From a virus (taxonomy: Duplodnaviria > Heunggongvirae > Uroviricota > Caudoviricetes): a stretch of 11,618 nucleotides of DNA. The notes under the pieces are model-generated. The model was not told the origin of the DNA, did not search any database, and worked only from the letters and a program-made list of their open reading frames with translations. The stretch lies in IMG/VR virus record IMGVR_UViG_2585427748_000011, positions 1-11,618 of that record; one strand, given 5' to 3'. The first letter of the stretch is position 1. Every line of letters begins with the position of its first letter. Shown here in pieces: positions 1 through 11,618 of this stretch. A program made the position numbers and the translations under genes.

Positions 1-333
1 ACTGGCATGTTTCATGATGTAACGCATGCCGGTGATGTATTGCCCCTCATGCTGACTGGCGCGGCTGTACGGGGGATTACCAAAGGCAGCACCTTTAAGC
101 TCCGCAAGACGTTCAGACCAGTCATGCGCCAGCGCGTTGTCTTCCGCAGTGTAATAAGCGGCACATTTGGCGTTATCACCATCAGTGAACAGATCCAGAA
201 CAAACGGGCCAAACAGGGTGTTAATTCCCCAGAAAATGTTGTCCGGCGTGCGCCACTGATCGCCCACTTCCTTCAGTTCATGGGCTGGTTTGTTTCGCAG
301 CTCCACCAGCGCCTGGCAATATTTATTACTCAT
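1..333 (-). CDS. Phage Dam-family DNA N6-adenine methyltransferase, N-terminal part only (gene continues beyond left window edge)
   Basis: Reverse-complement translation from ATG at 333-331: MSNKYCQALVELRNKPAHELKEVGDQWRTPDNIFWGINTLFGPFVLDLFTDGDNAKCAAYYTAEDNALAHDWSERLAELKGAAFGNPPYS..., containing an NPPY catalytic-type motif. The ATG overlaps the TAA stop of the upstream gene (coupling). Not in the ORF track because no stop lies within the window. Confidence 0.6.
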   Translation of the reverse strand, partial: MSNKYCQALVELRNKPAHELKEVGDQWRTPDNIFWGINTLFGPFVLDLFTDGDNAKCAAYYTAEDNALAHDWSERLAELKGAAFGNPPYSRASQHEGQYITGMRYIMKHAS

Positions 334-827
334 TAAGCCCCCACGTAATTCCCTGACAGATACCACTCTTCACCCGATGCAGCGCGCTTGCTGCTTTTCC
401 GTAAGCACCGCTCACGATGCGCCAGAAAATTGTTTCGTTCTGGCTGGGAGTGGCTTTCACGGAATGCCTCCATCCACACCGTTGCAGCTCGACGGAATAA
501 GCCCCTGGACTCCAGTTCTTCAGCCTGGCGGGTCAGGCACAAAATCACCCGGGGGTCGTTAGTGCCGACATAGAAATTGCGCACAGGTCTGGTTTCACGA
601 ACTGGTTGTGGTTCCGGCTCCTGCGCTCTCTCAGTCAGGCGCGGGAAATGTCTGCGTGTATCCCCTTCACAACGGTGAGCCACACGCCCACTCTGACGTA
701 ACTTGCTTGCTGACTGCAGAACGCGCTGCCGTGAGTAACCAGCAAAAGCATCTGCAATGTCTCCGGAAGTACACCCCGGATGGGCTTCAATGAATTTCTG
801 AACGTCATTCAAAAGACTCATGATCAC
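333..827 (-). CDS. Hypothetical phage protein, 164 aa (same length as K-12 CPS-53 YfdN as I recall; function unknown)
   Basis: ORF in track; ATG at 827-825 overlaps the TGA stop of the upstream replication gene (ATGA coupling); its own stop overlaps the start of the methyltransferase gene. Confidence 0.6.
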   Translation of the reverse strand: MIMSLLNDVQKFIEAHPGCTSGDIADAFAGYSRQRVLQSASKLRQSGRVAHRCEGDTRRHFPRLTERAQEPEPQPVRETRPVRNFYVGTNDPRVILCLTRQAEELESRGLFRRAATVWMEAFRESHSQPERNNFLAHRERCLRKSSKRAASGEEWYLSGNYVGA

Positions 828-1765
828 CCCCTGAATCCTGCCGGGATCTGGCTGTAGTCCACGTTGTCGTAACTGGCTTTGAAGTACGGGTCTTCGCGTT
901 TTTCGGTGTACGTGCTGACGGACGGTGATAAGCGCAGGGAAAGCTCATCCCATTTTTCCCGCAACTTCGACGGGCTGAGCACGTTACGGCACCAGAACGG
1001 ATCGCGGCTGACGCGGCTGTACATCTCGCAGATTTGTTTGTGAGTACGACCATCCTGCACACACATCAGGCGAATTTCGTTTGCCCAGGCTGTCCAGTTC
1101 GGTTCTTTGGGACGAACCACCTCGCCGTCACATTCGGCGGCTTGCTCGTACAGGGCGATGATTTTTTTCCAGAGCCACTGTGCGCAGGTCAAATCATCCT
1201 GCGTTCCCCACTGGCGCTTTTTAGGGCTGAATACAACCGCATCAGGATGGCGAGTTAAAAAATCCTGTTCATCCGTCTGCGTGTCCGGTTGCGAAGCGTC
1301 CGGACGAGAAGGTTTTTTATCTGACGGATCATGTTTTGATTTTACTGACGGATCCCCGCCAGATTCTGACGGGTGAAAACCCGCTTTTTTGCCAGATTTC
1401 GACGCATCAAATTTTGACGGGTCAGATTTTGATGCGTCAGATTTTGACGGGTCAGAATCTGACAGTTGAGAAAATGCCGCTGCCTGAAGCTTCGCAACGT
1501 TAAGCTGATAAACATTCGACGCATTGCGGTTACCCTGGCGACGCGCCTTACGTGTTAACCAGCCTTCTGCTTCCAGCCGTGCGATAGCCGTCCTGACGGT
1601 ACTCATCCCCGCGCCAATCTGACGGGCAATAGTTTCAATTGATGGCCAGCACACACCTTCGTCATTACTGAAATCAGCCAGGCGGGCCATAATTGCCACG
1701 CTGGATAATTTCATGCCTGATGCAGCGCAACCATCCCATACATAGCCGGTTAATTTAGTGCTCAT
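824..1765 (-). CDS. Phage replication initiation protein (O-like; N-terminal winged helix-turn-helix domain, repeat-encoded linker)
   Basis: 313-aa ORF; N-terminus (SVAIMARLADFSNDEGVCWPSIETIARQIGAGMSTVRTAIARLEAEGWLTRKA) resembles the HTH domain of phage replication initiators. Central low-complexity linker SDPSKSDASKSDPSKFDASKSG is encoded by tandem DNA repeats. RBS GAGG 7 nt upstream of ATG at 1765. Confidence 0.7.
   Translation of the reverse strand: MSTKLTGYVWDGCAASGMKLSSVAIMARLADFSNDEGVCWPSIETIARQIGAGMSTVRTAIARLEAEGWLTRKARRQGNRNASNVYQLNVAKLQAAAFSQLSDSDPSKSDASKSDPSKFDASKSGKKAGFHPSESGGDPSVKSKHDPSDKKPSRPDASQPDTQTDEQDFLTRHPDAVVFSPKKRQWGTQDDLTCAQWLWKKIIALYEQAAECDGEVVRPKEPNWTAWANEIRLMCVQDGRTHKQICEMYSRVSRDPFWCRNVLSPSKLREKWDELSLRLSPSVSTYTEKREDPYFKASYDNVDYSQIPAGFRG
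1318..1470. repeat. Iteron-like direct repeats (candidate replication origin) inside the replication initiator gene
   Basis: Core CTGACGG/TTGACGG/TTGATGC recurs at 1321, 1345, 1366, 1399, 1414, 1429, 1444, 1459. The last five copies are spaced exactly 15 bp apart (unit approx TTTTGACGGGTCAGA). Confidence 0.5.
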
Positions 1766-1774
1766 GACCGACCT

Positions 1775-2113
1775 CTATTTCCCTGAATTTACGACGAAAC
1801 TGTTCGAGCGGGCTGAAGCACTCATGCTCATAGCCTTCGCGGAGGTAGATAACTCGTTGTGTTTCCGGCTCCCAACGAATGACTCTGACGGGCACTCCGT
1901 AGTGATCTTTGAACCAGCGGTTAACTTGTCGCAAAGGACTGTCTCCTTCTGCCGGTTGAAATCACCCACAGCCCACTCAGCAAAGCTGTGGGTTACAATT
2001 TCCCTGTCACCTGGTACATTAACTGCATAGCAATACTCCACCTTCGCTTTTCCACCCGGTACAGGAAGCGCAATCAGTTGCGAGCGACGGTAGTGTGTTG
2101 TTAAACTGTTCAT
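1775..2113 (-). CDS. Hypothetical protein, 112 aa
   Basis: ATG at 2113-2111 overlaps the TGA stop of the upstream cII-position gene (ATGA). Stop at 1775-1777 is followed by GAGG and the ATG of the replication gene, so it fits the coupled minus-strand operon. Strand choice over the overlapping + ORF 1758..2030 rests on this context. Confidence 0.5.
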
Positions 2114-2718
2114 GCGTTAGTTTCTCCACAGTCACGACACGCCACGGCGCCCGGAGCTGCACACTCGCGGGCGTCATTACTTTCTGAAATGCAAAAGATT
2201 TTGTAGACCAGTGCTGCATGCTCCTGCAGCTTCGAAATTGAGAGATACAGCTCGTCGTTAATTGCTGTCTTCTCATGCGGTTCCACCACACCGTCTTCGA
2301 TTGCCGAACGAATCTGTCTGGAATAACTGCCAATCTGTTCAATGACTTCCAGCAGGCGCTGGTTAATATCGGCGTTGTCCACATCCTCGACGTCAGGAAG
2401 AGACACAAAGACGCCATTTGCAGACTGCGCCACAGCGTCAGCAATGAAGTGAGTTCCACCAGCACGTTGCAAAATCATTGCCCATCCCAGCGGGAAAATC
2501 TGATCGCCATCGGCACGAAGACGGTTAAATAATGCGTTTTCTGTTACATCCAGCCAGTCAGCTGCTTCAGCGTAACCACCCGGCAACGCTGCGATAGTTT
2601 TTCTGACAGCTTTCACGTACCACTCAGGCTGTTTTTCTACTTTCCAGTGATGCTTACCCACGGTTAGCCTCATCGTTCTGTGGTTTCTGTTAATCGATTT
2701 ATCCATTAGATTTTTCAT
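2110..2718 (-). CDS. Regulatory protein at the cII position of the immunity region (possibly phage CII/CP76- or YdaT-like); start uncertain
   Basis: Track ORF 2110..2775 begins with GTG at 2775 and would overlap the cro-like gene by 77 nt. In-frame ATGs at 2718 (MKNLMDKSI...) and 2706 (MDKSI..., overlapping the cro-like TAA) are more plausible. Functional call is by position and vague family recollection only. Confidence 0.5.
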
Positions 2719-2899
2719 AAAGCTCAGGTTTAAATGGCAACCGTCCGCAAGTTCTATATGCAGCTTCTGCTGCACGTCCTTTTGGAATTAACTGGCCCGG
2801 ACGGTTTCGCCACTGATAAACGGCTTCAGTTGTTATGCCGAAAAAAGCAGCAACTTTCTCAATACTGCCGAAGTAGCTTTCGATATCGTCAGTTGTCAT
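2699..2899 (-). CDS. Cro-like small HTH DNA-binding protein (Cro/YdaS-like)
   Basis: 66 aa, MTTDDIESYFGSIEKVAAFFGITTEAVYQWRNRPGQLIPKGRAAEAAY has an HTH signature. Divergent from the repressor gene; RBS GGAGGG 3-5 nt upstream of ATG at 2899. Confidence 0.65.
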   Translation of the reverse strand: MTTDDIESYFGSIEKVAAFFGITTEAVYQWRNRPGQLIPKGRAAEAAYRTCGRLPFKPELYEKSNG

Positions 2900-2996
2900 A
2901 CGCCCTCCAAACTAAGTTTTATTAGATGCTAATTACAAATCTATCTTTGGTCAATAAAAACTAAGATTACTTAGCAATTCAAGAAATGGTGCTCCT
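2900..2996. promoter_or_regulatory. Divergent immunity control region (OR-like): candidate PR-like promoter for the cro-like operon plus operator dyads
   Basis: On the minus strand: -35 TTGACC (plus coords 2949-2954), 17-bp spacer, -10 TAGCAT (2926-2931). 11-bp dyad AAACT-A-AGTTT at 2909-2919 over the predicted start/leader; partial copy AACTAAGAT at 2959-2967; CTAAG-ATTA-CTTAG at 2961-2974. No convincing repressor promoter found by eye. Confidence 0.4.
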
Positions 2997-3623
2997 ATGG
3001 AAACGGTTGGTCAGCGTATAAAAGCTCTGAGAAGAGTTACCGGAACGTCCCAGAAAGAATTGGGTAAATTTTGTGGAGTAAGCGACGTTGCTGTGGGGTA
3101 CTGGGAGAAAGACATCAATACCCCTGGTGGGGAGGCACTTTCGAAATTAGCGAAGTTCTTCAATACGTCAATAGATTACATTCTTTATGGTGCTGAGTTT
3201 GAAGGCAAACTCGTCACAAACATGCGCAGAGTTCCTGTAATATCGTGGGTTCAGGCTGGGCAGTTTACTGAGTGCAGGGCAGCAGAAGTGTTTAGTGAAG
3301 TGGACAAGTGGGTAGATACATCATTAAAGATTGGTGATAACTCATTTGCATTAGAGGTTAAAGGTGACTCCATGACTAACCCTAATGGCCTCCCAACAAT
3401 ACCAGAAGGCGCAACAGTGATTGTAGATCCAGATGCAGAACCTCGTCATGGAAAAATAGTCATCGCTCGACTTGATGGAACAAACGAAGCTACAGTAAAA
3501 AAATTAGTCATCGATGGCCCTCAAAAGTTTTTAGTGCCATTAAATCCTCGGTATCCCAACATCCCTATCAATGGTAATTGCCTTATCATTGGTGTAGTCA
3601 AAGGAGTTCAATACGAACTCTAA
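2997..3623 (+). CDS. CI-type prophage repressor (N-terminal HTH_XRE, C-terminal S24 LexA-like autopeptidase)
   Basis: 208 aa. N-terminus QRIKALRRVTGTSQKELGKFCGVSDVAVGYWEKD is an XRE-type HTH. C-terminal domain has the Ser motif GDSM and downstream Lys (ATVKKLV) of the S24 Ser-Lys dyad, and a LexA-like cleavage site VQAG-QF. Confidence 0.85.
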   Translation: METVGQRIKALRRVTGTSQKELGKFCGVSDVAVGYWEKDINTPGGEALSKLAKFFNTSIDYILYGAEFEGKLVTNMRRVPVISWVQAGQFTECRAAEVFSEVDKWVDTSLKIGDNSFALEVKGDSMTNPNGLPTIPEGATVIVDPDAEPRHGKIVIARLDGTNEATVKKLVIDGPQKFLVPLNPRYPNIPINGNCLIIGVVKGVQYEL

Positions 3624-3644
3624 GACCTCTCTTCTCTAACTAAG

Positions 3645-3678
3645 GCACCGAACTAAGAAAAGTTTGGTGTTTTCTCTT
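3645..3678 (+). terminator. Candidate intrinsic terminator downstream of the repressor gene
   Basis: Stem CACCGAACT (3646-3654) pairs with AGTTTGGTG (3661-3669), 9 bp with one G-U; loop AAGAAA; followed by TTTTCTCTT (3670-3678). The reverse strand has no U-tract. Confidence 0.5.
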
Positions 3679-3705
3679 GCCATAATAACTAAGTTAAGTT
3701 AGATT
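3677..3705 (+). promoter_or_regulatory. Candidate pL-like early-left promoter with operator dyad in the spacer (OL-like)
   Basis: -35 TTGCCA (3677-3682), 17-bp spacer, -10 TAGATT (3700-3705). Spacer contains dyad TAACT-A-AGTTA (3686-3696), same core as the dyad at 2909-2919. Identified by eye only. Confidence 0.3.
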
Positions 3706-3910
3706 TTATATCAAAGATAACGAACAGGCAGGACGCCCACGAAGTAGCCGCCTGGGGCATATGAAGTCCAGGATGATTCGTTGAGTCATGTTGTGCCACT
3801 AGGCACTCATGTTAAAGCAGGTGTATGAAATGAAAGTCCAGATTTTAAACAATAACTGTGAAGTCGTTTGGGCGTAAAACATGACCGCGCGTAGACCAAG
3901 GGAGGAAAAA

Positions 3911-4087
3911 GTGGGAATAGTTAGAAATCAAGCAGATATATTGAAAATCAGCTCTGAATTGCTTGGAGTTTTGAAAAGTGAGCTCACCGCACATGGCATC
4001 GAGCCCACTGACGAAAATTTAAGTTGGGTTTTGTCGATTATTCAACAATCACTCAAGCCCAGCCTCAGCAAACTTTTTATCGAGTAG
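3911..4087 (+). CDS. Small hypothetical protein (58 aa from GTG 3911; 68 aa if ATG 3881)
   Basis: Strong SD GGGAGG (3899-3905) 6 nt before in-frame GTG 3911; ATG 3881 has no SD. AT-rich island; overlaps the 3' end of a convergent minus-strand ORF by 39 bp. Confidence 0.35.
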   Translation: MGIVRNQADILKISSELLGVLKSELTAHGIEPTDENLSWVLSIIQQSLKPSLSKLFIE

Positions 4088-4240
4088 TGCTTCGAACTTA
4101 TCGTAAAGCTTGCTTATGTCGTCTATCGGGTTTTCTGACGTACTGTAATTTTTATCTGATGTCATGGCAGCAGTCTGATATGCAGTGTGAGTCTTAACCG
4201 ATAGTTGGAATAAATAAAGAATTTTTTCTTCTTTGGTCAT
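4049..4240 (-). CDS. Small hypothetical protein, 63 aa (MTKEEKILYLFQLSVKTHTAYQTAAMTSDKNYSTSENPIDDISKLYDKFEALLDKKFAEAGLE)
   Basis: ATG at 4240-4238 preceded on the minus strand by AAGGAA at about 8 nt spacing. The track ORF 4049..4282 starts further upstream without an RBS. AT-rich, convergent with the repressor and the + strand small ORF. Confidence 0.45.
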   Translation of the reverse strand: MTKEEKILYLFQLSVKTHTAYQTAAMTSDKNYSTSENPIDDISKLYDKFEALLDKKFAEAGLE

Positions 4241-4495
4241 AACTATTTCCTTCTTGGCTATATGAAAACACCAAGATACCACCGAGCCTGAAGTGGTGAA
4301 AAGACAGGCACATAACAGCTAAGTATTTTCAACCAGAGAGAATCCTTAGCGTTGTGGTGAATGCGGCTCAGCGCACGCGGGTTAAGGTTGAGGCTGACAG
4401 TCGACCTTCTGTGGATACCCACCCGCCTGGTGTGCAACTTTCGCCAGGCACCGGGAGGCACCCGGCACCACAACTTTATGCTGTGTGTAGTCCTC

Positions 4496-4541
4496 GCGGT
4501 ACCAGTTTGTACACTTGCTTCCGGCTGGTACCGCTCTTTTT
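4496..4541 (+). terminator. Terminator-like hairpin in the untranslated leader (possible 3' end of a small RNA or an antiterminated terminator)
   Basis: Perfect 10-bp stem GCGGTACCAG (4496-4505) / CTGGTACCGC (4525-4534), 19-nt loop, then TCTTTTT (4535-4541). The loop is long for a canonical terminator. Confidence 0.45.
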
Positions 4542-4630
4542 ACAAAACAGAGAAGAACATCACCGGACGACGGGCTCATAACCCAATCCATCCGGGCGGC
4601 TGCCACCGCAGGTGTTCTTCTCTGTTTTGT
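4542..4630 (+). other. Long perfect inverted repeat (18 bp arms, 53-bp spacer) predicted to form an extended RNA stem; candidate RNase III processing site or structured regulatory RNA
   Basis: ACAAAACAGAGAAGAACA (4542-4559) is the exact reverse complement of TGTTCTTCTCTGTTTTGT (4613-4630). The stem can extend with G-U pairs into the preceding U-tract. No ORF with an RBS spans it. Confidence 0.4.
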
Positions 4631-4678
4631 GGAGAAACCAACCGACCTTGCAGGGTCGATATGATTAGGAGCAGAAAA

Positions 4679-5041
4679 ATGGCTAGCGAACGCAGTACTG
4701 ATGTGCAGGCATTTATTGGGGAGCTGGACGGCGGCGTATTTGAAACCAAAATCGGCGCAGTTCTCAGTGAAGTCGCTTCCGGTGTGATGAACACGAAAAC
4801 CAAAGGTAAGGTCTCACTCAACCTGGAAATCGAACCATTTGATGAGAACCGTGTGAAAATCAAACACAAACTCTCATATGTTCGCCCGACTAACCGCGGG
4901 AAAATTTCCGAAGAAGACACCACCGAAACGCCGATGTATGTCAATCGCGGTGGTCGCCTGACTATTCTGCAGGAAGACCAGGGACAATTACTGACTCTTG
5001 CCGGTGAACCTGACGGAAAACTCCGCGCAGCAGGTCATTAA
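4679..5041 (+). CDS. Hypothetical phage early protein, 120 aa (YfdP-like by length and position)
   Basis: ATG 4679 preceded by AGGAG (4667-4671, spacing 7). The track ORF 4361..5041 carries a 106-codon Arg/Cys-rich N-terminal extension across the structured region, judged non-coding. Confidence 0.7.
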   Translation: MASERSTDVQAFIGELDGGVFETKIGAVLSEVASGVMNTKTKGKVSLNLEIEPFDENRVKIKHKLSYVRPTNRGKISEEDTTETPMYVNRGGRLTILQEDQGQLLTLAGEPDGKLRAAGH

Positions 5042-5106
5042 TATCGTTCTTAATTAACCGATTATTTATCTCATCACTGAATATCTTTATATAGTGAGGA
5101 CTTATT

Positions 5107-5931
5107 ATGTCTCAGAACTTAGACGCAACCGCAATTAATCAAATCCATGCCCTTATTTCTGCTCAGGGTGTTAATGAAATTATCAGTAAGATTGGTGCCG
5201 ATGCTGTGGCATTGCCTGAGAATTTCCGCATTCATGATCTGGAAAAATTTAATTTAAATCGCTTCCGTTTCCGTGGTGCGCTTTCCACTGCCAGCATCGA
5301 TGACTTTACCCGTTATTCTAAAGATCTTGCAGATGAAGGCACCCGCTGCTTTATCGATGCCGATAATATGCGTGCCGTCAGTGTGCTTAACCTGGGTACT
5401 ATTGGTGAACCAGGTCACGCAGATAACACCGCCACACTCAAACTGAAAAAGACAGCACCGTTCTCTGCTCTGTTGTCTGTTAACGGCGAGCGTAACTCCC
5501 AGAAGTCACTGGCAGAATGGATTGAAGACTGGGCCGACTATCTTGTGGGCTTTGATGCTAATGGTGACGCTATTAAGGCAACAAAAGCGGCTGCGGCGGT
5601 CCGTAAAATCACGATTGAAGCAAACCAGACCGCTGATTTTGAAGATAATGACTTCAGCGGCAAACGCTCCCTGATGGAGTCTGTCGAAGCGAAGACCAAA
5701 GATATTATGCCAGTGGCATTTAAATTTAAATGCGTTCCGTTTGAAGGCCTGAAAGAACGTCCGTTTAAATTACGCCTCAGCATTATCACTGGCGATCGTC
5801 CTGTACTGGTTCTGCGCATTATTCAGCTGGAAGCAGTGCAGGAAGAAATGGCTAACGAATTTCGTGATCTGCTTGTTGAGAAATTTAAAGACAGCAAAGT
5901 AGAAACCTTTATTGGTACTTTCACCGCCTGA
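5107..5931 (+). CDS. Hypothetical phage protein, 274 aa (YfdQ/DUF2303-like by recollection)
   Basis: ATG 5107 preceded by GTGAGGA (5094-5100); clean 274-aa ORF; family assignment is from memory of length and gene order in CPS-53. Confidence 0.7.
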
Positions 5932-5943
5932 TTTCATTACTGC

Positions 5944-5965
5944 AAATGCCCCTGCGGGGGCATTT
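5944..5965 (+). terminator. GC-rich hairpin between genes (weak terminator or mRNA-stabilising stem)
   Basis: AAATGCCCC (5944-5952) / GGGGCATTT (5957-5965), 9-bp perfect stem with UGCG loop. The 3' flank ATGGAAAC lacks a real U-tract. Confidence 0.3.
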
Positions 5966-6059
5966 ATGGAAACATAATTGACTCAATAATCGCCTGATGG
6001 CGAGGGTTTTCTTTAACCAAAATTCAGCGCGGTGCAGCGCATATAAAGTGGAGAACAAA

Positions 6060-6596
6060 ATGTCATTTATTAAAACTTTTTCCGGGAAGCATTTTTATTA
6101 TGACAGGATAAATAAAGACGACATCGTGATTAACGATATCGCGGTTTCCCTTTCAAATATCTGCCGCTTTGCCGGTCATCTTTCTCACTTCTACAGTGTC
6201 GCCCAACATGCGGTGCTTTGCAGCCAGCTGGTGCCGCAGGAATTTGCTTTTGAAGCGTTAATGCATGATGCAACAGAAGCGTATTGCCAGGATATTCCCG
6301 CTCCACTGAAACGCCTTCTTCCTGACTATAAACGGATGGAAGAAAAAATAGACGCCGTAATCCGTGAGAAATACGGGTTACCCCCGGTTATGAGCACGCC
6401 CGTGAAATATGCCGATCTCATCATGCTGGCAACCGAACGCCGCGATCTCGGGCTTGATGATAGCTCTTTCTGGCCTGTACTGGAAGGTATCCCGGCAACA
6501 GAGATGTTCAAAGTGATTCCACTGTCGCCAGGCCATGCCTACGGGATGTTTATGGAACGTTTTAACGAGTTATCGGAGTTACGCAAATGCGCATGA
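6060..6596 (+). CDS. HD-domain 5'-deoxynucleotidase (YfbR/YfdR-like dNMP phosphohydrolase)
   Basis: 178 aa from ATG 6060 (GGAG at 6049-6052); HD-domain signature H...HD...D in VAQHAVLCSQLVPQEFAFEALMHDATEAYCQDIPAPLKRLL. The track ORF start at 5997 lacks an RBS. Confidence 0.75.
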   Translation: MSFIKTFSGKHFYYDRINKDDIVINDIAVSLSNICRFAGHLSHFYSVAQHAVLCSQLVPQEFAFEALMHDATEAYCQDIPAPLKRLLPDYKRMEEKIDAVIREKYGLPPVMSTPVKYADLIMLATERRDLGLDDSSFWPVLEGIPATEMFKVIPLSPGHAYGMFMERFNELSELRKCA

Positions 6597-6937
6597 ATGT
6601 TTTCGAAATGGAAGGGTTTCTTCGCGGGAAATGTGTACCACGAGATCTGAAAGTGAATGAAACAAATGCTGAGTATCTGGTGCGTAAATTCGATGAAGTA
6701 CGTGCTGAGGCTCGCAACGAGGGTATTAACTATACCGCAAGCCGTCTTGCTGCGGCTTTCAATCACGGATTTATCAATAAGTCTTTACGTGAAGTTTTCG
6801 ACGTTACACGCATGATTCTGTCAGCGAAAGAAGAGTTGGCTAATGAACCACACCCGATTGATGGCCTGTCCGGTGAATATGCGGAGAAATCCCTAGAAGA
6901 ATGGGCGGAACAGATTCGCAAAGGAGGCAACCAGTGA
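6587..6937 (+). CDS. Hypothetical early protein X, 116 aa (C-terminus ...EEWAEQIRKGGNQ)
   Basis: GGAG (6575-6578) 8 nt before ATG 6587; alternative ATG 6593 forms ATGA with the upstream stop. Its stop TGA overlaps the GTG start of the next gene (GTGA). Confidence 0.6.
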   Translation: MRMNVFEMEGFLRGKCVPRDLKVNETNAEYLVRKFDEVRAEARNEGINYTASRLAAAFNHGFINKSLREVFDVTRMILSAKEELANEPHPIDGLSGEYAEKSLEEWAEQIRKGGNQ

Positions 6938-7614
6938 GCAAGATTGACTATCAAGAACTGCGCGAGGCGGCGGAACAGGCAACGCAAGATGAATGGGTAG
7001 CATATATTTTGCCGGGTCATAACGGCATTTATCCTGCGCGCACGTCTGAGGGTAGGCATTGCGGATACTTTATTGACTGGCCTGGCGTCTGTCAGGGGCG
7101 GGAGAGCATCAGCATCAGAACCTACGCAGTGAATTGCAATGACGCATGGCTAAACACCGAAGGTGATGACATCTCCGGCTCATACGTTAAGTACAAAGAC
7201 CATCAGGAAGTGGTTGCCGCTCTTGAGGCCAAGTGCGCGGCGCTGGCTGCTGAGAATGCGGGAATAAAGTCTGCAATTCCAAAATCACGGGATATTGAGG
7301 ATGACAATGACAATATGGATGACGTATCTCTCGCGGAAGACTTCGGGTTCAATCATGCAATAGAACGGATGAGGAGACAGATACCTGAAACGCCAACCAC
7401 TGATGCTTTCCTGGCTGAAGTCCGGGCGCAGGGGGTGGATGCTGCTATAGAAGCTGCAAAAAATCTGGTGGCCCAAGAATATGAGTGTAAGGATTTCAAA
7501 GCGGCGCAGAGTGATTGCTGTATGCACCCTGGTTCAGACCTGGTAGGGAAGGTTGAAATGACTGAGTGGTTAGTTGACTTTGCTGCCCAGCTTCGCAAAG
7601 GAGGCAATCAGTGA
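6934..7614 (+). CDS. Hypothetical early protein Y, 226 aa, mosaic (N-terminus like protein Z, C-terminus like protein X)
   Basis: AAGGAGG (6921-6927) 6 nt before GTG 6934. N-terminus SKIDYQELREAAEQA; C-terminus ...DFAAQLRKGGNQ; coiled-coil-like middle. The track start ATG 6901 has no RBS. Confidence 0.6.
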   Translation: MSKIDYQELREAAEQATQDEWVAYILPGHNGIYPARTSEGRHCGYFIDWPGVCQGRESISIRTYAVNCNDAWLNTEGDDISGSYVKYKDHQEVVAALEAKCAALAAENAGIKSAIPKSRDIEDDNDNMDDVSLAEDFGFNHAIERMRRQIPETPTTDAFLAEVRAQGVDAAIEAAKNLVAQEYECKDFKAAQSDCCMHPGSDLVGKVEMTEWLVDFAAQLRKGGNQ

Positions 7615-8147
7615 GCGAAATTAATTACCAGGCACTGCGTGAGGTGGCGGAACGTGCAATTCCAGCAATGGAACGCCTGTTAATGTTGCCAGTTGATGAT
7701 GATTTGTTAAGTGAACAGGAACTTAAAGATTACGGTGTGGATATTGATGCGCTCAATGCCTTCAAATTTCTGACCGGACCAGAAACCGTGCTGGCACTAC
7801 TGGATGAACGGGAAAGAAACCAGCAATACATCAAACGCCGCGACCAGGAGAACGAGGATATTGCGCTTACGGTTGGGAAGCTGCGCGTTGAGCTTGAAGC
7901 AGCAAAATCAAAACTCAACGAGCAGCGCGAGTATTACGAGGGAGTTATCTCTGATGGGTGCAAGCGTATTGCTGAACTGGAAGCGCGGGAAGTTCAATTA
8001 CCGACTCGCTACGACCTTCGATATGGACACCCGATAAATGCAGATGAGCGACAAGTCATGATACCTAAAGAAAATGGCAGTTGGCTTTACCTGATTGACC
8101 TAGAACACGCATTACGCGTCGCTGACATTCGCATCAAAGGAGAGTGA
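7611..8147 (+). CDS. Hypothetical early protein Z, 178 aa (N-terminus SEINYQALREVAERA; coiled-coil-like C-terminal half)
   Basis: AAGGAGG (7598-7604) 6 nt before GTG 7611, which overlaps the stop of Y (GTGA). The junction sequence is near-identical to the X/Y junction. Confidence 0.6.
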   Translation: MSEINYQALREVAERAIPAMERLLMLPVDDDLLSEQELKDYGVDIDALNAFKFLTGPETVLALLDERERNQQYIKRRDQENEDIALTVGKLRVELEAAKSKLNEQREYYEGVISDGCKRIAELEAREVQLPTRYDLRYGHPINADERQVMIPKENGSWLYLIDLEHALRVADIRIKGE

Positions 8148-8148
8148 T

Positions 8149-8664
8149 ATGGCGTTAACACACCACGAACTCTGTCAGATTGCGTACAAGTTCCTTAAGC
8201 GCAACGGGTTCAAGGTTTGCTTTCATGACCGCTTTGTTGCTGTAACCAGTACCGGAGAACAGCCAGATGCTATGGGATTCAGAAATTCAGCATCATGCCT
8301 GATAGAGGCGAAGTGTTCTCGTGCTGACTTGTTGGCAGATAGAAAAAAGCGTTTCCGTAAAAATCCCTCACTTGGCATGGGCGACTGGCGATTCTTTATT
8401 AGTGAGCCGGAAATTATTTCAGTTGAGGATTTACCTCCCGGCTGGGGATTACTTCACGTTGTTAACGGAAGAGTACGGAAAGTACATGGATGGCCCAGGG
8501 GTAATTGCTGTTGGGGTAATCCTGACGATAAGCCATTTACCGGGAATAAGCAGGTTGAATGCGATTACATGTTATCTGCATTAAGGCGCATGGAGCTAAG
8601 AGGACACCTTAATGAAATATATGACGGTGTAATTGTTAATAAGAAAGAAGGAAACGCAGCATGA
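8149..8664 (+). CDS. PD-(D/E)xK nuclease-superfamily protein (MmcB-like by recollection)
   Basis: 171 aa; RBS AGGAGAG before ATG 8149; motif D...E-x-K in GEQPDAMGFRNSASCLIEAKCSRAD. Confidence 0.55.
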   Translation: MALTHHELCQIAYKFLKRNGFKVCFHDRFVAVTSTGEQPDAMGFRNSASCLIEAKCSRADLLADRKKRFRKNPSLGMGDWRFFISEPEIISVEDLPPGWGLLHVVNGRVRKVHGWPRGNCCWGNPDDKPFTGNKQVECDYMLSALRRMELRGHLNEIYDGVIVNKKEGNAA

Positions 8665-9530
8665 CCACTTTAACCGACAAAGAACTGATTAAAGAAATCA
8701 GAGAGCGTATAGGCAGCCTGGACGTCCGAGACAATATTGAGCGTCGGGCTTATGAAATTGCTCTGGCATCGCTGGAACGCGAACAGATTCGCCACGAGCA
8801 TGCCAAATGGTCTGACTCCACATTTGGCTGCGTTGGCCCCATTGGTCCGCTGAAACATCTCTCAAAAGAGGCACTGGAAGCCGCAGCCGAACCAGACGAT
8901 CTTAGCGAGTGGGCTGATATGCAGTTTCTGTTGTGGGATGCACAGCGCCGTGCTGGCATCAGCGATGCTGAAATTACCGCTGCTATGGAAGATAAATTGA
9001 AGATCAACATGGAACGCCAGTGGCCTGAACCAAAAGATGGTGAGCCTCGCTTGCACATTAAAGAACCCGGCAACTCTCCGGTAACTCCGGCTCGCCTGCC
9101 TGGTGGTTTCACCATTGAGGATGCGAAGGCATTACATGAAGACCTGGTTCGCAGCCACATAAGCCAGGCTTTAAGTGGTGAAAAGATGAAAAAGAACGAT
9201 CGCGATGCTGATTTGCGCTGGATTCATGGCGTAATAGTTCAGGCAGCGTGGTTTGTAAAAGCATCACTGGAGCAAAATGCACTATCGGGCAACTATCCGG
9301 TAACTCCGGATGGTTGGATAAGCTGTAGTGAGCGAATGCCGAAAAAGAATCAGAACGTACTTATTTCGGTGAATTTCGATAGTGATCTGGTTGAGCCGCT
9401 AATATGCTCCGCACGCTATACCGGAAGTACCTTTCGGCGAGGACAAGCAACGATTAAGCCGGGTAATGGTATTGAGCAGGCAACCCACTGGATGCCGCTG
9501 CCAGAACCGCCGCAGGAGGTGAATCAATGA
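8661..9530 (+). CDS. Two-domain phage protein: N-terminal MazG-like NTP pyrophosphohydrolase-type region (DUF550-like), C-terminal DUF551-like domain
   Basis: 289 aa; ATG 8661 overlaps the upstream stop (ATGA), RBS GAAGGAAA. N-terminal acidic helical motif EALEAAAE...EWADMQFLLWDAQRRAGISDAEI; C-terminal WISCSERMPKK...THWMPLPEPP. Domain names are from memory. Confidence 0.55.
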   Translation: MTTLTDKELIKEIRERIGSLDVRDNIERRAYEIALASLEREQIRHEHAKWSDSTFGCVGPIGPLKHLSKEALEAAAEPDDLSEWADMQFLLWDAQRRAGISDAEITAAMEDKLKINMERQWPEPKDGEPRLHIKEPGNSPVTPARLPGGFTIEDAKALHEDLVRSHISQALSGEKMKKNDRDADLRWIHGVIVQAAWFVKASLEQNALSGNYPVTPDGWISCSERMPKKNQNVLISVNFDSDLVEPLICSARYTGSTFRRGQATIKPGNGIEQATHWMPLPEPPQEVNQ

Positions 9531-9610
9531 GCTGGCCTGATGCAATCGTAACTCTGGGGATGGTATTCGCAGTAGCGTTTGTTGTGTACTCGATTTGTCG
9601 ATGGGGATAA
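9527..9610 (+). CDS. Small hydrophobic peptide, 27 aa (MSWPDAIVTLGMVFAVAFVVYSICRWG), predicted single transmembrane helix
   Basis: Strong SD AGGAGGT (9514-9520) 6 nt before ATG 9527, which overlaps the upstream TGA (ATGA). Too short to appear in the ORF track. Confidence 0.45.
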   Translation: MSWPDAIVTLGMVFAVAFVVYSICRWG

Positions 9611-9614
9611 CCAC

Positions 9615-9857
9615 ATGTTCGCTTTGATTCAACGCGGTCAGATATACACGGACAGAGCTGGATACCCCGTGGTGATTACTCGCATCACTGAGCACTCAGT
9701 GTTCTTTCGACGGATGGACGGACGATCCGGGCGGGTACGCATTGGTGAGTTAAACTGCCTGTTCGAACATATTGACCACCAGGAGTACCGCAAAATTCTC
9801 GCGGACACTGAGCAGGAAAAGCACCTGAAAAAATTACGAGCCATAAAAAGGAAGTAA
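9615..9857 (+). CDS. Hypothetical small phage protein, 80 aa (possibly DUF4222-like)
   Basis: ATG 9615 with weak SD GGGGA; the track ORF starts at TTG 9579 inside the preceding peptide ORF. Basic C-terminus KHLKKLRAIKRK. Confidence 0.5.
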   Translation: MFALIQRGQIYTDRAGYPVVITRITEHSVFFRRMDGRSGRVRIGELNCLFEHIDHQEYRKILADTEQEKHLKKLRAIKRK

Positions 9858-9860
9858 AGA

Positions 9861-10007
9861 ATGAATAAAGCATTTGAACGATGGGTCCACCAGCGTTACG
9901 GCAATCGCTATGACCTGACGCGAGATGTTGACGGCTTCTACTGTCGTGAAGTTGTGAAGCGAATGTTTGAAGTGTGTTGCCACTGCCGTGGGCTGAGTGT
10001 TGTGTGA
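9861..10007 (+). CDS. Small Cys-rich protein, 48 aa (MNKAFERWVHQRYGNRYDLTRDVDGFYCREVVKRMFEVCCHCRGLSVV)
   Basis: AAGGAAG 6 nt before ATG 9861; its stop lies beside the GAGG RBS of xis. Four Cys in the C-terminal 20 residues. Not in the ORF track (below length cutoff). Confidence 0.4.
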   Translation: MNKAFERWVHQRYGNRYDLTRDVDGFYCREVVKRMFEVCCHCRGLSVV

Positions 10008-10015
10008 GGTAATAC

Positions 10016-10252
10016 ATGGGCAATGTGATTCAACTGGCTCCCAATGAATGGGTTTGTGAAAGCGTTCTTATCGCAATTACCGGGCTCAAACCAGGCACAA
10101 TTCTTCGGGCCCGGAAAGAATGCTGGATGGTTGGAAGAGAGTATATTCACGTATCACCAGACGGTAATCCAAAGCCTTCCAGTGAATGTATGTATAACAG
10201 AAAAGCAATAGATGCCTGGGTCGCCTCAATGAAAAACAAACAACCCAGGTGA
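10016..10252 (+). CDS. xis: Excisionase-like protein (Xis)
   Basis: 78 aa immediately upstream of the integrase; MGNVIQLAPNEWVCESVLIAITGLKPGTILRARKECWMVGREYIHVSPDGNPKPSSECMY matches my recollection of enterobacterial phage excisionase-like proteins; RBS GAGG. Confidence 0.7.
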   Translation: MGNVIQLAPNEWVCESVLIAITGLKPGTILRARKECWMVGREYIHVSPDGNPKPSSECMYNRKAIDAWVASMKNKQPR

Positions 10253-10307
10253 TTTAATATCATGAAATATGTAAGCTCGTATCGCTCTTGGGCGTCTGGA
10301 GGTATCG

Positions 10308-11618
10308 ATGGATAAAGTCAAATATCCAACAGGCGTCGAAAACCACGGCGGCACATTACGCATCTGGTTTAATTTTAAAGGTAAACGTGTCAGGGAAAAT
10401 CTTGGTGTCCCTGACACTGCCAAGAACAGGAAGATCGCCGGGGAACTGCGGACATCAGTATGTTTTGCCATCCGCACAGGAAGCTTTGATTATGCTGCAC
10501 AGTTCCCTGACTCCCCCAACCTTCAGGCTTTTGGGGTAAGTAAAAAAGAAATTACGGTGAAGGAACTTGAAGAAAAGTGGCTGGATCTGAAACGAATGGA
10601 AATCTCTGCAAATGCATTCAATCGCTATGAATCCGTTGCAAGAACGATGGTTCCGAAAATTGGAGGCAGTAGACTGGTGTCATCGGTAACCAAAGAGGAA
10701 TTGCTGTATATCAGGAAAGATTTGCTGACCGGGTATCAGAATTCAATGAAAAACAAAGCAGCAAAAGGACGGAGCGTTGTTACTGTAAATTATTACATGA
10801 CGACAATCGCTGGAATGTTTCAGTTTGCTGCAGATCACGGTTACTTAGAAGCAAATCCCTTCCAGGGAATTAAGCCTCTTAAAAGAGCCAGGGCAGAGCC
10901 AGATCCGCTAACTCGTGACGAATTTATTCGCCTGATAGATGCTTGCCGACATCAGCAGACGAAAAACCTGTGGTCATTGGCTGTGTACACAGGAATGCGT
11001 CACGGTGAACTGGTCTCCCTGGCCTGGGAAGATATCGATCTGAAGGCAGGAACAATTACCATCAGGCGCAATTATACGAAACTTGGTGAGTTCACTCTAC
11101 CGAAAACTGAAGCAAGCACAAACAGGGTTGTGCACCTTATCCAGCCCGCTATCAGTGTCCTGAAAAATCAGGCTGAAATGACAAGACTGGGTAAGCAGTA
11201 CAACATCAAGGTGCAACTACGTGAATATGGACGTTCAGTGAACCATGAATGTACTTTCGTGTTTAACCCTCAAGTGGTTAGAAAAAGCGAACAGGTAGGT
11301 TTTGTCTACAAAGTCGATTCTGTAGGTGACTCATGGGAAACAGCCATTAAGCGTGCAGGGATCAGGCATCGAAAGGCATACCAGTCACGACACACTTATG
11401 CGTGCTGGTCATTATCTGCCGGAGCAAACCCAAGCTTCATTGCCAGCCAGATGGGCCATGCAAGTGCCCAGATGGTATTCAATGTATACGGAGCATGGAT
11501 GACTGACAGCAATGCAGAACAGATCGCAATGCTGAATCAGAAGCTGACAGATTATGTCCCAATGATGCCCCATAGTCACCAAAGTGACACCAGAGGCTTA
11601 TTAAAATCAGTAAGTTAA
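10308..11618 (+). CDS. int: Phage tyrosine integrase (lambda-Int family site-specific recombinase)
   Basis: 436 aa; N-terminal arm-binding-type region (GTLRIWFNFKGKRVRENLG). Catalytic-domain motifs: R in YTGMRHGEL, H-x-x-R-type motif at AYQSRHTYACW, nucleophile Tyr in VFNVYGAW. RBS GGAGG 5 nt upstream. Stop codon is the last 3 bases of the window. Confidence 0.9.
   Translation: MDKVKYPTGVENHGGTLRIWFNFKGKRVRENLGVPDTAKNRKIAGELRTSVCFAIRTGSFDYAAQFPDSPNLQAFGVSKKEITVKELEEKWLDLKRMEISANAFNRYESVARTMVPKIGGSRLVSSVTKEELLYIRKDLLTGYQNSMKNKAAKGRSVVTVNYYMTTIAGMFQFAADHGYLEANPFQGIKPLKRARAEPDPLTRDEFIRLIDACRHQQTKNLWSLAVYTGMRHGELVSLAWEDIDLKAGTITIRRNYTKLGEFTLPKTEASTNRVVHLIQPAISVLKNQAEMTRLGKQYNIKVQLREYGRSVNHECTFVFNPQVVRKSEQVGFVYKVDSVGDSWETAIKRAGIRHRKAYQSRHTYACWSLSAGANPSFIASQMGHASAQMVFNVYGAWMTDSNAEQIAMLNQKLTDYVPMMPHSHQSDTRGLLKSVS

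Follow-up and report, generated by a model that had tools for sequence, protein, structure and literature searches.

The window examined here is the whole 11,618-nucleotide stretch covering positions 1 to 11,618 of IMG/VR virus record IMGVR_UViG_2585427748_000011, a member of the Caudoviricetes. Judged by its gene content, it is the early-left operon of an Escherichia coli lambdoid prophage, running from the repressor to xis/int, and the segment from 6400 to 8300 was 99.9% identical to the prophage that adjoins mlrA in E. coli strain TOE17. The subject of the analysis is a short junction that occurs twice in this segment, where it connects three consecutive plus-strand genes designated X, Y and Z. 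Gene X (6587..6937) encodes a protein of 116 residues that combines an N-terminus of the HK620 HkaH/HK97 gp37/YfdS type with a C-terminal module of the Ead family. Gene Y (6934..7614) has a GTG start and encodes an Ead/Ea22-like protein of 226 residues (Pfam PF13935, phrog_368). Gene Z (7611..8147), which also starts with GTG, encodes a lambda Ea22-type protein of 178 residues that matches PF13935 and ends in IRIKGE.

The initial annotation had described the X/Y and Y/Z junctions as near-identical 29-nucleotide elements, and this was confirmed. The sequences at 6911-6939 (CAGATTCGCAAAGGAGGCAACCAGTGAGC) and 7588-7616 (CAGCTTCGCAAAGGAGGCAATCAGTGAGC) agreed at 27 of 29 positions, the differences being A/C at position 4 and C/T at position 21. 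A repeat search extended the match without gaps to 89 nucleotides at 76% identity, the two copies (6894..6982 and 7571..7659, both on the plus strand) forming direct repeats with a spacing of 677 bp. Copy 1 comprises the conserved end of the upstream gene, a Shine-Dalgarno sequence, a GTGA overlap and approximately the first 16 codons of Y. The 23-mer CGCAAAGGAGGCAAYCAGTGAGC occurred twice in the window at three or fewer mismatches as compared with 0.00 matches expected from 200 shuffles, so a chance origin of the repeat was ruled out. The window would hold two copies of this junction island because two gene cassettes that each begin with it sit in tandem.

The Shine-Dalgarno sequence AAGGAGG is located at 6921..6927 for Y and at 7598..7604 for Z, both on the plus strand and both 6 nucleotides 5' of the GTG start codon (6934 and 7611, respectively), and it is read as K-G-G in the frame of the upstream gene, X in the first case and Y in the second. 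At both junctions, the last two bases of the GTG open the TGA stop codon of the upstream gene, giving a four-nucleotide GTGA overlap. This coupling-type arrangement could be read directly at each junction. The translations showed that X ends in ...AEQIRKGGNQ and Y in ...FAAQLRKGGNQ, each followed by the stop codon, and that the N-termini are VSKIDYQELREAAEQ in Y and VSEINYQALREVAER in Z. In BLASTP comparisons, the C-termini of X and Y had 14 of 32 residues in common (E 6e-4) and the N-termini of Y and Z had 13 of 27 (E 3e-4). The similarity thus reaches beyond the ribosome-binding site into the flanking proteins, and the shared RKGGNQ ends, the AAGGAGG, the GTGA overlap and the similar N-termini, all of which had been noted at the outset, were borne out by the sequence and its translations.

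Six complete genomes (H8-H13) matched the window in two pieces that span 1224 bp rather than 1901 bp. In E. coli strain SMBL, Z directly follows X, and the region is shorter by exactly 677 bp, which is the spacing of the repeats. The hybrid junction in SMBL consists of CAGATT...GGCAAC, followed by CAGTGAGC and then by GAAATT; it is of the X/Y type through GGCAAC and of the Y/Z type from GAGCGAAATT onwards. The crossover lies within CAGTGAGC, since it is here that the bases switch from the X/Y type to the Y/Z type. The flanks were 98.1% and 99.3% identical to the corresponding parts of the window. An exact Y-sized presence/absence difference is therefore observed directly, and the comparison of the two arrangements indicates that Y was either acquired or deleted with the two repeats as the exact limits.

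When viral contigs were scanned for exact copies of CGCAAAGGAGGCAAYCAGTGAGC, at least 119 loci were obtained, and a survey of cassettes was built on the matches listed, to which all of the following counts refer. Among 98 unique 400-mers, conservation was high only from approximately -33 to +48 around the GTG and was at background level outside these limits. The upstream proteins end in RKGGNQ yet fall into 18 tail types, most of which have the form 'PATDAFLAEVRAQGV ... variable core ... FAAQLRKGGNQ', while three have none of it. Most of the downstream proteins open with MS(K/E)I(D/N)YQALRE and differ from one another beyond it; a few, such as proteins of 74 and 335 residues, are unrelated. 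When the flanks of 102 unique contexts were clustered, 25 upstream and 24 downstream clusters were found in 65 combinations, with 44 four-gamete quartets. Of 130 pairs of cassettes with a shared upstream flank and different downstream flanks, 127 lost their similarity between +5 and +49. Similarly, in 146 of the 150 pairs that differed upstream and shared the downstream flank, the similarity set in between -36 and -17. The exact tract over the junction in cassettes that differed on both flanks had a median length of 28 nucleotides (quartiles 25-33), the lower bound being partly set by construction, as the loci were found with the 23-mer. This assortment of the flanks is likewise a direct observation. 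The proposal in the initial annotation that the genes recombined at a conserved linker is supported by the 65 combinations, by the ends of similarity inside the island and by the X-Z junction of strain SMBL.

The island was found in 2448 of 5426 complete E. coli genomes, in up to 11 places per genome, and 473 of the places were on plasmids. It recurs in phages of E. coli and Salmonella and was present in 418 phage records, including HK620, HK97, P22-like phages (EaE/EaD) and Shiga toxin (Stx) phages. In HK620, for which Clark and colleagues are said to have defined seven boundary sequences, the junction sits between hkaH and hkaG and the tail is RKGGSQ; no boundary features are annotated in the HK620 GenBank record. 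A wide taxonomic spread was not found when one genome per species was scanned for an exact 20-mer, the island being essentially confined to Escherichia in this set. The scan gave six loci, two of them from Escherichia. One contig of 1374 bp from a metagenome-assembled genome binned as Sutterella was 97-99% identical to E. coli prophage DNA and is probably a mis-binned E. coli prophage. The loci in metagenome-assembled genomes of Anaerolineales, Chlorobiota and Chlamydiae had only the 20-mer in common and were rejected as chance matches; by our own estimate, about two chance matches are expected for this 20-mer in 596 Gb.

Tandem duplication in a family of early proteins had been put forward as another origin of the repeated junction. 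At the level of the family the suggestion stands, as Y and Z adjoin on the same strand, the repeats are direct and 677 bp apart, and both proteins matched the Pfam Ead_Ea22 model PF13935 well above the cut-off of 27 bits (97.3 bits for Y, 127.4 bits for Z with the whole model covered). A local duplication is a different matter. If one ancestral gene had been duplicated to give Y, Z and the end of X, with the junctions as remnants of the duplicated ends, it would be difficult to explain why the DNA similarity covers only 89 nucleotides and is not detectable elsewhere in the bodies of Y and Z, and why significant similarity between the two proteins is restricted to approximately 27 N-terminal residues. 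Moreover, each body has closer relatives in other phages, where it is associated with other partners (residues 1-141 of Z, for example, are 61% identical to lambda/DE3 Ea22 over 141 residues), and at other loci the same junction connects dozens of unrelated pairs. These comparisons largely refute tandem duplication as a recent event, and a local duplication is considered a very improbable source of the three genes.

A further possibility is that programmed frameshifting or read-through at the junction, with the internal Shine-Dalgarno sequence as the stimulator, makes X-Y or Y-Z fusion proteins. Internal Shine-Dalgarno sequences are known to stimulate frameshifting in prfB and dnaX. The frame of Y is open 5' of its GTG as far back as an ATG at 6901, and phrog_14548 (378 positions) spans an X-type C-terminus followed by a Z-type N-terminus. 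However, there was no slippery heptamer (X XXY YYZ) at the junction and no stimulatory RNA structure, the fold z-scores at the two junctions, +1.26 and -0.57, not being significant. Fusion proteins of this kind are accordingly extremely unlikely. The long open reading frames (ORFs) that span the junction in some loci were attributed to extension of the downstream frame by the ORF caller (for example ...RRQPVSKIDYQ in locus L012) and were rejected as fusion proteins. A structured RNA or regulatory site at the junction was also rejected: apart from the lack of a significant fold, Rfam gave no match at the junction, its sole match in the window being at 4321-4543, and no promoter or terminator was found there.

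The nature of the RKGGNQ tail was addressed with a second sample of viral contigs, collected by the N-terminal peptide, whichever synonymous codons encoded it. The 80 listed loci reduced to 67 unique contexts, 35 of which had the 23-mer at no more than one mismatch and 10 at two to four mismatches. In the junction-like contexts, again among the matches listed, no variation was seen at the third positions of the codons for K, G and G, the Shine-Dalgarno positions -12 to -8 were invariant, and positions -13 and -7 were conserved in 96% and 93%, respectively. The third positions of the N-terminal codons were conserved at only 56-93%. Changes in the tail fell outside the Shine-Dalgarno sequence and altered the amino acid, N being replaced by S, D, K, C or I, and R by G, H or S. 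In addition, GGAGGCAACCAGTGAGC was found downstream of sequence in which no RK tail is encoded, and RKGGNQ terminates proteins with unrelated bodies. A GTG-AGC start always places a TGA in the +1 frame; as a consequence, an upstream gene in that frame reads R-K-G-G-N-Q and stops on the overlap. The tail is best interpreted as the downstream initiation region translated in the frame of the upstream gene rather than as a protein end that was swapped, and the pattern of codon variation indicates that the N-terminal stretch of approximately 16 residues is conserved as a peptide.

It could be argued instead that RKGGNQ has a function of its own at the C-terminus, for instance as a tag for degradation or interaction, and that selection on the protein maintains it, the identity of the DNA being secondary. 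The tail closes many different proteins, it is usually preceded by the conserved and possibly helical F-A-A-Q-L, and Ea22 proteins likewise have a common terminal K/R-G-E motif, which the authors thought possibly meaningful, the significance of '+GE' being unknown (PMC7093339). This interpretation is at odds with the lack of synonymous variation in the K, G and G codons of the Shine-Dalgarno sequence, with the N and R codons that change the residue, and with the retention of the same nucleotides at sites where no RK tail is encoded upstream. RKGGNQ encoded by alternative codons was not seen among the matches listed. Moreover, the K-G-E tail behaves alike, in that AAAGGAGAGTGA is almost invariant and is followed by one base and then ATG. 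A role of the tail as a peptide tag thus seems unlikely. No mention of the RKGGNQ tail was found in the literature searched, Clark et al. 2001 being outside that search.

The K-G-E tail belongs to a second adapter junction, AAAGGAGAGTGATATG, located at 8136..8151 on the plus strand, where the K-G-E-stop of Z coincides with the Shine-Dalgarno sequence of the next gene. In Z, K-G-E-stop is encoded on AAAGGAGAGTGA, which is followed by T and then by the ATG of the next gene at 8149. Within the fetched loci, ORFs of at least 60 codons provided 94 unique [K/R]GE-stop contexts, nearly all of which kept AAAGGAGAGTGA followed by T or G and ATG before at least 10 different N-termini. The end of lambda ea22 matches that of Z and has the same K-G-E ending, and a close match to strain CMZE063 stops at window position 8153. 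From this arrangement, the K/RGE tail can be read as the Shine-Dalgarno sequence of the next gene translated as protein. Upstream of this tail, Z is nearly identical to lambda Ea22 at residues 58-125, through the coiled coil, and the C-terminal domain differs. In TOE17, the Prokaryotic Genome Annotation Pipeline (PGAP) lists Z as a partial pseudogene 'missing C-terminus' (8269-8583 of locus L001, corresponding to approximately 7668-7982 of the window). In the window, the ORF is intact from its GTG onwards, and the pseudogene call is probably an artefact caused by this GTG start together with the variable C-terminal domain.

The initial annotation also regarded Y as a chimera with a Z-type N-terminus and an X-type C-terminus. 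The shared termini are real, but the description needs rewording because residues 1-226 of Y cover positions 1-239 of the phrog_368 profile from end to end, and X is the clearer chimera of the two. Y has the architecture that is standard for its family, the members of which are mosaic throughout, and the PGAP annotation of TOE17 labels the same coding sequence of 681 nucleotides 'ead/Ea22-like family protein'. Y opens with a conserved N-terminal segment, which is followed by a variable region and a long predicted helix; beyond these lie the patch PTTDAFLAEVRAQGV, a variable core and the terminal FAAQLRKGGNQ. The helix, which spans residues 90-114, was predicted by a low-confidence model only, as structure prediction of Y without an alignment gave a poor model (mean predicted local distance difference test score 49, predicted template modelling score 0.30) from which only hints of secondary structure were used. 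Searches for solved-structure relatives of Y and Z returned insignificant matches only, and NCBIfam gave nothing useful.

The patch PTTDAFLAEVRAQGV (7393..7437, plus strand; Y residues 154-168) is common to most of the RKGGNQ-ending proteins and precedes the hypervariable core. Several phage matches (H32, H34, H35) start near window position 7386, and the starts of Y alignments cluster at residues 150-170, so that the patch appears to be a further exchange boundary inside gene Y. In the C-terminal module, a putative first helix, TDAFLAEVRAQGV, and a putative last helix (FAAQL...) might pack together around the hypervariable core.

In X, residues 1-42 matched phrog_583, while residues 36-116 matched phrog_614 and the C-terminal columns of phrog_368. 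The two parts, residues 1-41 and 37-116, were found apart in other loci, with the joint at '..VRKFDEVRAEARNEG..'. X was 39% identical to HK620 HkaH, the match being strongest at the N-terminus. It looks like an HkaH/gp37-type protein minus its coiled-coil middle. A Pfam search with X gave no match, and X was hence not counted as a member of PF13935; the names given to it by PGAP are 'hypothetical' or 'YfdS family phage-associated protein'.

The surrounding genes were assigned by matches to Pfam and PHROG profiles. The minus strand carries, in order, genes for a PerC-like protein, a helix-turn-helix protein, a CII-like protein and Cro. Next come a CI-like S24 repressor on the plus strand, YfdQ (DUF2303), the 5'-deoxynucleotidase YfdR and then X, Y and Z. 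On the 3' side of Z lie a gene of unknown function, a dATP/dGTP pyrophosphohydrolase-DUF551 protein, a DUF4222 protein, the excisionase and the integrase, and the position of X, Y and Z is comparable to the exo-xis region of lambda. The Pfam matches at 8661-9530 indicated a dATP/dGTP pyrophosphohydrolase domain fused to DUF551 in one protein, and such domains may be shared among early-operon cassettes. The Rfam match at 4321-4543 on the plus strand, with 48.5 bits against a gathering score of 47, was to the gammaproteobacterial small RNA STnc100; within it lies the start of an ORF (4361-5041), between the repressor and yfdQ. A PADLOC search with X, Y, Z and their neighbours gave no matches to defence systems.

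The explanation favoured here, to which we assign a probability of roughly three in four, is that a translational-coupling junction doubles as a short patch of homology for the exchange of cassettes, that is, as a classical lambdoid 'boundary sequence'. The junction module would be the initiation region of an Ead/Ea22-type gene, consisting of AAGGAGG, a 6-nucleotide spacer and GTG-AGC, flanked by the last codons of the C-terminal module of the family, F-A-A-Q-L, on one side and by approximately 16 conserved N-terminal codons on the other. The GTGA stop/start arrangement is expected to couple the translation of the two genes tightly. The nearly identical DNA of the island, placed between unrelated gene bodies, would then provide an exact homology patch of about 25-33 nucleotides, across which phage or host recombination enzymes could swap, insert or delete whole gene cassettes. 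The exchange would presumably proceed by homologous or relaxed homologous recombination.

Several observations weigh against this explanation. The conservation of the island could be fully accounted for by the Shine-Dalgarno sequence, the start codon and the two terminal peptides, in which case recombination would be a consequence and not a selected role. The cassette survey was ascertained on an exact 23-mer, and the conservation of those bases is therefore given by construction. Among the 67 peptide-ascertained contexts, 22 had other upstream sequence, including the lambda ea22 type; the junction is common, not obligatory, before Ead/Ea22-type starts. No recombinase gene (Red, RecT or Erf) was identified within the window. 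According to published values, efficient pairing requires a minimum of 23-27 bp with Red-beta and 31-34 bp with RecA (PMC3945230), and the longest identical run between the two copies in the window, 16 bases, falls below these lengths. With so short a shared run, Y would be removed only inefficiently by a simple intramolecular deletion, and the X-Z arrangement may instead be ancestral or may have been assembled between different phages.

A broader extension of the boundary-sequence explanation can be envisaged, although it is offered tentatively and is probably too strong. CGCAAAGGAGGCAACCAGTGAGC, leading into another Ead/Ea22-type gene, and AAAGGAGAGTGA followed by T or G and ATG, leading out to other genes, might be more than side effects of ribosome binding and might be maintained as the universal adapters of a cassette system based on homologous recombination. 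Co-resident prophages and infecting phages would use it to swap the variable effector domains of early-operon accessory proteins, which could be lysogeny modulators or counter-defence factors, while expression is kept coupled. If this were true, the RKGGNQ and K/RGE tails would be the footprints of the adapters.

The case bears on the old debate as to whether mosaicism is targeted to conserved boundaries or results from random joints filtered by selection. It is unusually clean and countable, with one junction of 23-80 nucleotides between dozens of unrelated partners and a cassette-sized difference in nearly identical prophages. It reveals no new mechanism or protein function. It does provide a simple account of the conserved C-terminal tails of Ea22-type proteins, RKGGNQ and '+GE', that is relevant to the design of truncations and to the interpretation of conservation in this family.

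The junction and its genes were compared with several known systems. The family to which Y and Z belong (PF13935/IPR025153) includes lambda Ea22, P22 EaD and HK620 HkaG. Ea22 proteins have been described as three-part mosaics in which the N-terminal segment and the coiled coil are shared and the C-terminal domains are dissimilar, and those of lambda and Stx phages were reported to be pro-lysogenic and tetrameric (PMC10834534, PMC7093339). Like lambda Ea22, Z has the N-terminal segment, the coiled coil and the K-G-E end. The N-terminal segment of the family is also present in Y, its long helix being predicted by the low-confidence model only; Y departs from Ea22 in its middle region, which is unrelated, and in its C-terminal module, which is of another type and ends in RKGGNQ. 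In lambda itself, ea22 is a single gene and has no RKGGNQ junction upstream.

As in translationally coupled overlapping genes, the junction has an NTGA-type overlap, here the four-nucleotide GTGA, and a 7-nucleotide Shine-Dalgarno sequence 6 nucleotides 5' of the start and inside the upstream ORF. It differs from them in that one initiation region is conserved as DNA before many genes and forces one six-residue tail on unrelated upstream proteins.

Relaxed (homeologous) recombination by Rad52-like phage recombinases has been proposed as a source of mosaicism (Martinsohn et al. 2008, PMC2327257; De Paepe et al. 2014, PMC3945230). The present mosaic blocks resemble its products in being bordered by short stretches of above-background identity, with tracts of 25-33 nucleotides that lie in the Red-beta range.

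A further parallel is provided by the conserved boundary or linker sequences invoked in the modular evolution of lambdoid phages (Susskind and Botstein 1978; Clark et al. 2001 for HK620; summarised in PMC3233612 and PMC2327257). In common with these, the junction is a short conserved stretch at a gene boundary, has alternative non-homologous flanks and contains the points of exchange. Unlike them, it is not an intergenic linker but has coding sequence on either side and also serves as a ribosome-binding site and stop/start overlap, and it separates single genes of one family, not functional modules. With these differences, the junction is a well-defined new instance of the known boundary-sequence model of phage mosaicism.

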